Positions 18,209 through 20,029 of a stretch of DNA of 64,000 nt are shown piece by piece; positions within the stretch are counted from its first letter, which is position 1; every line of letters starts with the position of its first letter. The position numbers and the translations under genes were made by a program. The notes beneath the pieces are model-generated. The model was not told the origin of the DNA. It worked only from the letters and a program-made list of their open reading frames with translations, and did not search any database. Where the stretch lies: positions 128,001 to 192,000 of the forward strand of contig CAWHXD010000019.1 of assembly GCA_963833225.1 (NCBI GenBank), written 5' to 3'. Source of the stretch: an uncultured Chloroflexia bacterium. Its GTDB lineage: Bacteria > Chloroflexota > Limnocylindria > Limnocylindrales > CSP1-4.

Positions 18209-20029
18209 TCAGGACGCTGGCGGCAGGACTGCGATCTGTGCCTCGGCAGCCGCTGCGACCCGTTCTCGCCGACGCTGTGCCGCCTCCTTCGCCCTGGCTG
18301 GCTGCGCCAGGCGGTCGCACTCGGGGCAGTCCGTCATCGAGAGCGTGCGCTGGTAGACGACCGCCGGCCACTCGTGGCCGAGCGCGCACTGCCAGTAGGC
18401 GCGGTAGGCCGAAGCGCGGGTCACCTCGTCCGCGTGCTTCGTGTTCTTCTCGGCGTGCCACTCGAGCGCGAGGTGCGGGTAGTAGGCCGCCAGCGACTCC
18501 GCGGGATGGACCCGGTTGCCCATGTGGAACGGGCAGAACGAGCCGTGGTAGATCCGGTCGACGAGCTCGGTCTCCCAGACGTGGTTCTCGTTGAGCAGGC
18601 AGCGCCAGATGACGCGCCGCCGGCTGCCCGCGCTGATCGTCATCGGGTCGAGGTCGCCGTTGAAGTCGTAGTCCCACTCGAGGAGGTAGTCCTCGAACTC
18701 GTGGAGGAACCGGCCTTTCGTCGGCGTGACGACGCGCGGCCGCGGGTTCTTGGGCCGGCCCTTCGGCGGGATTGGCAGGCCGTGGAGCTGCCGCAGGTCG
18801 AGCGCCTCGTCGTAGAGACGGCGGTTGCGCTCCCGCGCCCACTCGAGGTGCTCGTCCGCCGCACGGCGCCTTGAGCGACGGTCGGACTCGAACACGAGTC
18901 GCGGGATGGACGCCTCGTCGCGGTCCTGCCAGGTCCGCCACCAGCTCATCTGCCGCCGCCTGCCTCGGTAGGTCTCCATCGGCAGCACGTTGGCCGCCGG
19001 CAGGTGTGATGCGTTCGCGTTCGCCTCGAACTGGGCGCGCACGATCTTCGCGTAACGCGCCTCCCGGGCGAGGCCGCGGCCCTTGAGCGTGATGAGGCCG
19101 AGCACGAGGTTGAGCCGGCGCGCGTTCTGCCAGCGGCCGGCCCGGCGCTTGATGGGCGCGAGCCACTCGGCGATCTTGCCCTCGAGCGAGCCCGTCGAGA
19201 GCGGGATCGGCCCGTGCTCGCGGGCGATCCGCCACTGGCGCACGATCAGCAGCTCGTTGGTGGCGACCCACGAGCGCAGGGCGAGCTTGTCGGGCGGGAC
19301 GTAGCGGGCGACCGCGTCCTTGAAGGCGGCCCACTCCTCGGGGCCGCGCTGGGCGACCTTCATCGCGGCGTAGAGCGGGTGGTCGCCCCACCGTCGAACG
19401 GTGCCACCGGTCCAGGCGACGCGTCGCTCGACCTTGATGGGCTCCTCGAGGCGGATCCGCTCGGCGATGCCGTCCTCGGCGGCCCGCTTGCGCATCAGCT
19501 CCTCGATGTGGTGGCGCGAGTGGTAGAGGATCGCCTTGGGCCACGTCTCGCGCACGGCTCGCGCGATTGCGGCGTCGAGGTCGGCGATCACCCAGGACGG
19601 TTCTCCCGAGAGCTGCGAGAAGAACGCCTTCCAGCTCTCCACGTCCTTACCGCCCGCGACCTGCATCGGCACGGGCACGGTCTTGTGGTGGGTGCCGTCC
19701 ATCGCGACGAGGATGGTGCCGGCCTTGAGGTTGCGGACGAAGCGCTCCTCGTCGGGGCTCGCGCCCGCGGCTCGCTCCGCTGCGGACGGCGGACGGTAGC
19801 CGGTCGCCATGAGGGTCGTCGAGTCGAGGATCAGGACCCGCGGCCACTCGTGCGGCATGAGCTCGGCGAGGACGGGCAGGGCGTAGGCGTCGAGGTAGTT
19901 GACCGCGAGGTTGGCCTGGCGGCTCGTGTCGCCGCGACGGATCCGCTTGAACTGCGGCTCGTCCGCCTTGCGGTTGCTGGTCTTGAGAACGTGCTCGCGC
20001 AGCTCGCAGCTCGCGTCGCGCAGGCTCAT
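18209..20029 (-). CDS. IS256/Mutator-like DDE transposase with two C-terminal DUF4379-type zinc-ribbon domains
   Basis: LILDST (D), SWKAFFSQL, VIADLDAAIARAVRETWP (D), HSRHH, STGSLEG (E); two EW..N..S...W.C..H.W...R...CP units. Confidence 0.8.
   Translation of the reverse strand: MSLRDASCELREHVLKTSNRKADEPQFKRIRRGDTSRQANLAVNYLDAYALPVLAELMPHEWPRVLILDSTTLMATGYRPPSAAERAAGASPDEERFVRNLKAGTILVAMDGTHHKTVPVPMQVAGGKDVESWKAFFSQLSGEPSWVIADLDAAIARAVRETWPKAILYHSRHHIEELMRKRAAEDGIAERIRLEEPIKVERRVAWTGGTVRRWGDHPLYAAMKVAQRGPEEWAAFKDAVARYVPPDKLALRSWVATNELLIVRQWRIAREHGPIPLSTGSLEGKIAEWLAPIKRRAGRWQNARRLNLVLGLITLKGRGLAREARYAKIVRAQFEANANASHLPAANVLPMETYRGRRRQMSWWRTWQDRDEASIPRLVFESDRRSRRRAADEHLEWARERNRRLYDEALDLRQLHGLPIPPKGRPKNPRPRVVTPTKGRFLHEFEDYLLEWDYDFNGDLDPMTISAGSRRRVIWRCLLNENHVWETELVDRIYHGSFCPFHMGNRVHPAESLAAYYPHLALEWHAEKNTKHADEVTRASAYRAYWQCALGHEWPAVVYQRTLSMTDCPECDRLAQPARAKEAAQRRRERVAAAAEAQIAVLPPAS

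Follow-up and report, generated by a model that had tools for sequence, protein, structure and literature searches.

The 3′ part of a tRNA gene, or the flank downstream of it, is used as a harmless insertion site by tyrosine integrases, Tn7-like transposons and type V-K CRISPR-associated transposons, which recognise it by recombination at an attachment (att) core, through TnsD-like proteins or with a guide RNA. We describe here an insertion sequence (IS) that adjoins the 3′ end of a tRNA-Arg gene in a 64,000-nucleotide stretch of DNA from an uncultured Chloroflexia bacterium (assembly GCA_963833225.1, contig CAWHXD010000019.1, positions 128,001 to 192,000; hereafter the window), together with its relatives in other genomes. 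For this family, in contrast, a single transposase of the DDE (Asp-Asp-Glu) type appears, to judge from the sequences, to be enough.

The closest described enzymes are those of the IS256 family, and the closest described behaviour is that of the eukaryotic Dada transposons. IS256-family elements, such as ISCth4 (Pfam PF00872/MULE), share with the tRNA-end family an RNase H-like DDE core with a helical insertion, 8-bp duplications, and inverted ends, which measure 24–30 bp in the tRNA-end elements. The ISCth4 report also describes N-terminal DNA-binding domains ahead of the core, which bind the subterminal part of the element end (PMC7780238). The two groups differ in size, the transposase of the tRNA-end family having 717 amino acids (aa) rather than about 400, and its elements 2.2–3.0 kb rather than about 1.5 kb (IS256, about 1.3–1.5 kb; ISCth4, 1,503 bp with a 47-kDa transposase, PMC7780238). 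They also differ in that the tRNA-end family has an extra N-terminal zinc domain, two DUF4379 units within a C-terminal tail of about 230 aa, and SRHH in place of CxxH; and its insertions are base-exact, whereas ISCth4 is described as favouring A/T-rich sites without site specificity (PMC7780238).

Dada transposons (Kojima and Jurka 2013, PMC3706591) are described as having a DDE transposase distantly like those of IS256 and MuDR, with N- and C-terminal zinc fingers, and as hitting tRNA and small-RNA (small nuclear RNA) genes at fixed positions with short duplications. Unlike the present elements they are eukaryotic, 4.7–11 kb long and interrupted by introns, make 6–7-bp duplications and insert inside the RNA genes; DUF4379 is not mentioned in the text consulted, and the likeness is one of description. 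IS1202-group elements at dif/pdif (XerCD) sites are likewise reported (PMC10132070) as bacterial DDE insertion sequences whose distance from a short, conserved site of the host is constant, but they use another transposase family and another site and have a single fixed orientation, where the tRNA-end elements are found in both. Tandem zinc units of about 60 aa on a DNA cutter of mobile elements are known from homing endonucleases that combine a Vsr-type nuclease with CapR/DUF4379/DUF723-like repeats (PMC12350094); these are nucleases and not transposases, they carry three to five units, and their authors put forward, as a proposal, that the DUF4379-like units give the enzymes their sequence specificity.

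Target sites of the tRNA-end family

The window element is present once in its source genome and directly adjoins the tRNA-Arg gene (Table 1). The 8-bp duplication at its two sides is the final 8 nt of tRNA-Arg(TCG), CCA included. The element entered by way of an 8-bp staggered cut at the final 8 nt (NNNNNCCA) of the tRNA-Arg gene, and the duplication restores the tRNA 3′ end, such that the gene stays whole.

A search with the transposase gave 219 homologues at E ≤ 1e-3 among 8,000 scored; PF14311 (DUF4379) is present in 119 of 120 homologues among the matches listed, most of them about 717 aa long. Species-representative genomes provided 27 related loci; going by the record titles, most of these genomes are bins of Chloroflexota and Actinomycetota. 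The family was found in nine of the 401 genomes of the phylum sample. ARAGORN identifies tRNA genes in 11 of the 27 loci, and in nine of these 11 the inverted end starts 0–2 nt after CCA. The end sequence was located in the window and in all 27 loci, every flank was read, and 38 ends with usable flank, from the window and 25 loci, were scored for a target signature; two loci with flanks of ≤2 nt (L013 and L019), one end at a contig start (L010) and a missing left end (L017) were excluded. At 37 of the 38 ends, either NNNNNCCA stands against the element end or TGGNNNNN, the duplicated copy, stands at the far end, compared with a background for this signature of 0.108 of all positions in the same sequences. 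At least 12 different 8-mers occur at the ends, every one terminated by CCA. The targets comprise tRNA-Arg (with three anticodons), tRNA-Ala, tRNA-Pro, tRNA-Lys, tRNA-His, a Val-like tRNA and the tRNA of L015, L021 and L113, and they are entered in both orientations, with the transposase gene running along the tRNA in eight cases and opposite to it in nine. Both flanks are available for 12 elements; six have exact 8-bp duplications (the window, L006, L009, L015, L018 and L024) and three have duplications with one mismatch (L011, L016 and L026). With near certainty, we conclude that these elements constitute a complete IS family specific for tRNA ends.

When the 14 targets that are not tRNA fragments are aligned at their CCA, only two segments are constant: the T-loop box (positions −25 to −15) and the CCA itself (−3 to −1). 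The target layout is thus the T-loop box GGTTCGAaTCC, 6 variable bp, and the 8-bp duplicated site ending in CCA. Since insertions lie exactly after the tRNA CCA, some targeting module must exist. The 2.23–2.44-kb elements hold a gene of about 2.15 kb and have less than 80 nt of non-coding DNA per side, repeats included. It is therefore unlikely that the element encodes a guide RNA, and we infer that the reader is a protein.

Transposase core and zinc-ribbon tail

The original prediction, made from the letters of the window, was that one transposase combines an IS256-like DDE core with two C-terminal DUF4379-type zinc-ribbon units, and that these units could bind DNA and select the target site. 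The core strings on which it drew (LILDST, VIADLD, HSRHH and STGSLEG) read exactly as quoted in the translation of the minus-strand frame ending at 18209, and both tail units are present in the minus-strand translation of positions 18209–18730.

By fold, the modelled core is clearly IS256/Mutator-like: the best matches of the closest intact relative, modelled over its full length (predicted local distance difference test, pLDDT, of 75), are 6xgx and 6xg8, structures of ISCth4 of the IS256 family, aligned over an RNase H-like DDE core with a helical insertion (Foldseek E 8.8e-8; template-modelling score of about 0.48 on the target). Profile searches place the protein less closely. With Pfam, the core of the window protein scores below the cut-offs for MULE (E 0.058) and ISL3 (E 0.051), and it does not reach the cut-off of PF00872 (Transposase_mut). 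Short relatives of about 420 aa that lack the DUF4379 pair and have the same N-terminal zinc motif as the tRNA clade (P0253, P0200 and P0164) do pass PF00872, at 25–31.7 bits against 21, and a core profile without the tail matches 716 clusters (50% identity) at E ≤ 1e-3. Following the second Asp, the tRNA clade has an invariant SRHH (S282 to H285), where other clades have CExH and IS256-type relatives CxxH. The IS256-like placement holds at the level of the superfamily and fails for membership in the family itself, on profile score, on size and, less clearly, on the replacement of CxxH by SRHH. Membership in two other groups was considered and rejected, in ISL3 on scores of 18.6 bits against 180 (NCBIfam NF033550) and 13.8 bits against 23 (PF01610), and in IS1249 likewise on score.

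The zinc-ribbon assignment of the tail was borne out by Pfam, in which PF14311 matches in two stretches (E 4e-28; 97.8 bits, cut-off 24.5); the better stretch is unit 2, at residues 617–669 of the 703-aa open reading frame (ORF) considered below. Two such units are indeed unusual for IS256-type transposases. Pfam names the DUF4379 domain a 'probable treble clef zinc finger', and in an alignment of 12 tails the putative zinc ligands C43, H49, C65, H68, C114, H118 and C134 are invariant and C137 is conserved in at least 90%, giving a putative C/H/C/H ligand set for unit 1 and a C/H/C/C set for unit 2. AlphaFold2 models the 172-residue tail (mean pLDDT 86.5) as two small units, each a beta-hairpin plus helix, followed by a long helix. 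Fold and sequence searches of solved structures with this tail return DUF4379 proteins only, with Foldseek E-values of 2e-6 to 1e-4 and an E-value of 2.7e-7 by sequence; the match to mt-SAF33 (6sga_Fd) has Z 9.1 and a root-mean-square deviation of 4.1 over 85 aligned residues, and a wide fold search gave nothing above Z 3 except DUF4379 proteins, a result that does not show other similar folds to be lacking.

Candidate readers of the target

Relatives with and without the pair were compared among 77 superfamily representatives with a full core, using a tree and unit profiles; 41 have two units, eight have one and 28 have none, and 17 of those 28 form two short-tailed clades. One distant clade with both units, of about 620 aa, was studied at 27 metagenome loci. 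Its duplications are 8–9 bp long, exact in five of eight, and differ in sequence. In 12 of the 19 loci with a detected end, the hexamer TGTCAA is found on one side at −20 to −15 (once at −21 and once at −19); two further loci have it with one mismatch, and the remaining five show one end only or too little flank. Two more genome loci (L112 and L098) have the same arrangement, and a third (L104) fits it only after the repeat boundary is shifted 3 nt by eye. The layout is thus a TGTCAA box, 6 bp and the 8–9-bp duplication, with insertion 14 bp from the box: the same geometry as in the tRNA clade (box, 6 bp, 8-bp duplication, element) with a different box. Candidates for the role of the TGTCAA box in the host are a promoter −35 element, an operator or a repeat; inspection of four flanks by eye revealed no −10-like hexamer.

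Two loci of the TGTCAA clade (L076, positions 1285–1348, and L081, positions 102–167) have two element ends head to head with a spacer of 8–9 nt, and these may be either tandem copies or captured circle junctions of copy-out/paste-in transposition. The source genome itself also carries, outside the window but in the same contig, a distant frameshifted relative with two DUF4379 units (G000:C19:754423-755472, represented by L045, L116 and L097); its ends are not recognisable, and there is no tRNA within about 6 kb of it.

Homologues without the tail have no tRNA nearby in seven loci. One of them occurs twice in one genome (G1038; L101, positions 1378–3740, and L130); the copies, each about 2.36 kb long, are 99.9% identical and have inverted ends of about 48 nt, 7-bp duplications, and GTGAC beside the duplication in both.

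We propose the following scheme. The transposase would bind the element ends by its basic N-terminal zinc/helix-turn-helix (HTH) region, which is common to all clades. A second DNA reader would dock on the box and so position the active sites at distances of 6 and 14 bp from it, and this box reader would be the tandem treble-clef DUF4379 pair, tethered by the long helix and the basic linker. Transposition would probably be copy-out/paste-in, as in IS256. The pair is the main module gained relative to the short relatives, and it is conserved much like the catalytic core (majority frequency 0.76–0.78 versus 0.74–0.75). A common geometry with different boxes fits a conserved, retargetable reader whose spacing to the active sites is constant, and the sharing of the tail by two clades therefore raised the idea that it selects targets and did not kill it. 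The tail is not singled out, because both clades also share the N-terminal domains. As an address reader for tRNA ends the tail is a plausible but unproven candidate; for the narrower claim that the DUF4379 pair reads the box, for which it is the best candidate, we regard the chances as evenly poised. An IS specific for tRNA ends, with the pair as its candidate reader, is the best explanation overall, and we lean slightly towards it.

A number of observations weigh against giving the pair this role, and several of them favour an alternative in which the element is tRNA-end-specific and its reader is instead the N-terminal zinc/beta domain, the Cys/His loop at residues 61–97 or the catalytic core, with the pair serving in transpososome assembly or regulation, in extra contacts with the ends, or in binding a host factor. 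The most conserved segment of the protein is the 61–97 loop (0.84; 41% invariant) and not the pair. The pair, alone among the regions of the protein, is net acidic in the tRNA clade (mean charge −3.4; isoelectric point 6.3), which is atypical for a DNA binder; all other regions are basic, the N-terminal ones strongly so, except for the near-neutral loop (−0.7). The mean charge of the pair in the TGTCAA clade is +5.6. Solved DUF4379 domains are all from mitochondrial ribosome particles, and none of them is on DNA. The pair is moreover widespread: at least one unit is present in 49 of the 77 full-core representatives, and it is found in clades that differ in their targets as well as in relatives for which no target can be recognised. 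Nor does presence of the units go along with tRNA insertion; the clade of about 620 aa, with both units, has no tRNA gene in the flanks of any of its 27 loci (L069–L095), and the distant pair-bearing relatives L034, L045 and L052 (the last a member of the TGTCAA clade) have none within about 6 kb, L034 and L045 also having no convincing element ends. Nor could a target rule be obtained for the relatives without the tail, since inverted repeats in their other loci gave no duplications. On the other side, the N-terminal zinc motif is common to the short relatives and to all clades and hence seems to be the basic part that binds the element ends, as the N-terminal domains of ISCth4 do (PMC7780238); a single target geometry is common to both pair-bearing clades; and DUF4379-like repeats have been proposed elsewhere as DNA-specificity modules (PMC12350094). 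We consider a reader outside the pair possible though rather doubtful.

Further points against the reading concern the target sites. Flanks are discordant in three of the 12 elements with both sides (L007, L008 and L012), perhaps from chimeric contigs or recombinants, and many of the loci are metagenome bins and short contigs. At L016, L023, L026 and L099 the element adjoins tRNA 3′ pieces of only about 16–24 nt, and at three of these (L016, L026 and L099) the full T-loop box is absent. Elements beside such pieces would suit recognition through RNA or DNA structure, in which the tail holds a host tRNA, or an extruded cloverleaf strand, that pairs with or marks the 3′ end of its own gene; the occurrence of all solved DUF4379 proteins in ribosome particles and the lack of basic charge on the pair point the same way. 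If this were true, the cell's own tRNAs would be ready-made guides, and insertion at any tRNA species would be explained. In the second clade, however, a plain 6-bp box serves at an identical spacing and RNA genes are absent from the surroundings, and the shortened tRNA pieces may date from after the insertion; we regard such tRNA-guided recognition as improbable. Less probable still, to the point of being hard to credit, is that insertion is near random and that only harmless copies, in tRNA 3′ flanks, persist. Sites just after tRNA genes are indeed harmless and copy numbers are low (one in the source genome; nine of 401 genomes), but the position is nucleotide-exact in 37 of 38 ends, the at least 12 different 8-mers all end in CCA and are entered in both orientations, and single-base precision is beyond what selection can give.

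The window copy and significance of the family

The coordinates of the window element and its parts are given in Table 1. In the relatives, which mostly encode about 717 aa, the gene reads straight through where the window copy has a stop, and a DNA alignment with L005, L008 and L013 shows that a single-base deletion near 20035 splits the window gene into parts of 111 and 606 aa. The TGA of ORF1 and the ATG of ORF2 overlap as ATGA, downstream of a G-rich stretch. A 703-aa frame starting at GTG 20320 was rejected as the gene, because the relatives show a 717-aa protein that is split here. The missing base is either a real mutation or an assembly error; sequencing runs contained at most 0.11 of the element's words in any run. 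Because the deletion splits it, the window copy is probably inactive or dependent on the cooperation of its two pieces.

Table 1. Features of the insertion sequence and its insertion site, in window coordinates (residue numbers of catalytic candidates and of the long helix follow an intact relative).
Feature	Position	Strand	Basis
Whole insertion sequence, 3,013 bp	17437..20449	-	Repeat search, junction reading
Terminal inverted repeat, transposase-start end, 24 bp, perfect	20426..20449	.	Repeat search
Terminal inverted repeat, far end, 24 bp, perfect	17437..17460	.	Repeat search
tRNA-Arg (anticodon TCG), intact, CCA encoded; 3′ end adjoins element	20450..20526	-	ARAGORN
Target-site duplication, tRNA-proximal copy (plus strand TGGCGCGC; final 8 nt of tRNA GCGCGCCA)	20450..20457	.	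Sequence reading, signature scan
Target-site duplication, distal copy (TGGCGCGC)	17429..17436	.	Sequence reading, signature scan
ORF1, 111 aa: N-terminal Cys/His-rich zinc/beta domain of transposase, truncated by frameshift	20026..20361	-	
Frameshift site, one base missing (relatives ...ATCGGCGAGGGG...; window ...ATCGG-GAGGGG...)	20034..20037	-	Alignment with L005, L008, L013
ORF2, 606 aa (P0001): HTH region, DDE core, long helix, linker, two DUF4379 units, basic C-terminal helix	18209..20029	-	
Candidate first catalytic Asp (LILDST; D180), invariant in 28/28	19823..19825	-	Alignment, inferred assignment
ADLD, candidate second catalytic Asp (D261 or D263, both invariant)	19574..19582	-	Alignment, inferred assignment
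Candidate catalytic Glu (STGSLEG; E394), invariant	19181..19183	-	Alignment, inferred assignment
Long predicted helix (residues 486–527), then basic low-confidence linker	18782..18907	-	AlphaFold2, charge
DUF4379 unit 1 (EWDYDFNG...WRC...HVW...CPFH; ligands C, H, C, H)	18512..18691	-	Pfam, alignment, AlphaFold2
DUF4379 unit 2 (EWHAEKN...WQC..GHEW...CPEC; ligands C, H, C, C)	18308..18496	-	Pfam, alignment, AlphaFold2
Basic C-terminal helix following unit 2	18227..18325	-	AlphaFold2 tail model, charge
ORF3, 226 aa, passenger gene, DUF4304-like	17507..18187	-	Pfam E 0.029, atlas score 0.94

The ORF3 passenger is missing from the other 15 complete elements, which are 2.23–2.44 kb in size, and neither it nor the transposase matches the PADLOC library of defence systems. 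A promoter scan of positions 17300–20700 gave no sigma-70-like promoter; that the element is transcribed by read-through from the tRNA is only a guess.

Several family loci have unusual surroundings. At L016 (positions 4800–4900, the right flank) and L099 (positions 1380–1432) the element adjoins only the last 16–18 nt or so of a tRNA-Arg, and in both loci sequence normally found downstream of that tRNA stands, inverted, ahead of this piece. At L027 (positions 4160–6442) the element adjoins a copy of about 45 nt of the 3′ part of tRNA-His, with the intact tRNA-His 2.2 kb away, an arrangement that looks like an attachment-site duplication from another integrated element. L007 has two different far-side copies, L008 has a second CCA-ended flank, L012, close to a contig end, shows one and the same tRNA-like end at either side of the element in inverted order, and L017 lacks the left repeat and has a direct repeat of about 25 nt instead; chimeric assembly or recombination between copies is possible for these four. 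A c-di-GMP-II riboswitch match (59.8 bits) on the minus strand of L021 (positions 1846–1932) lies about 1 kb from the element and is unrelated to the insertion.

The family was also looked for outside the sampled genomes. Among plasmids, tblastn with an intact relative gave 65 records in which the match is to the DUF4379 part of unrelated multi-repeat proteins only, none covering 80%, and the short relative P0225 gave no match; two plasmid proteins (L067, positions 2054–3313, and L068, positions 2234–5389) have six PF14311 units each, one of them fused to an SNF2/ResIII helicase. The domain thus occurs attached to several DNA enzymes, a point in favour of the tail as the reader. Viral contigs yielded one partial family locus (L099) and nothing for the sister protein P0131.

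In the open-access library searched, neither a DUF4379 transposase nor a bacterial IS that targets tRNA 3′ ends is described. Among the source names listed, homologues are called only 'hypothetical' or 'zinc-ribbon domain-containing protein', and because of these labels the elements have been missed in the annotation of Chloroflexota and Actinomycetota. The finding gives access to a large branch of IS256-like elements, so far unannotated, whose choice of target is exact to the base and encoded in protein. Base-exact landing by a single-protein DDE transposase is rare in bacteria, and the site here is the universal tRNA 3′ end, which is left intact. The sister clade, having the same layout and another 6-bp box, amounts to a natural swap experiment on the long-standing question of target choice by a simple transposase, and if the zinc tail is the reader, it would point to a compact, RNA-free, retargetable insertion tool.

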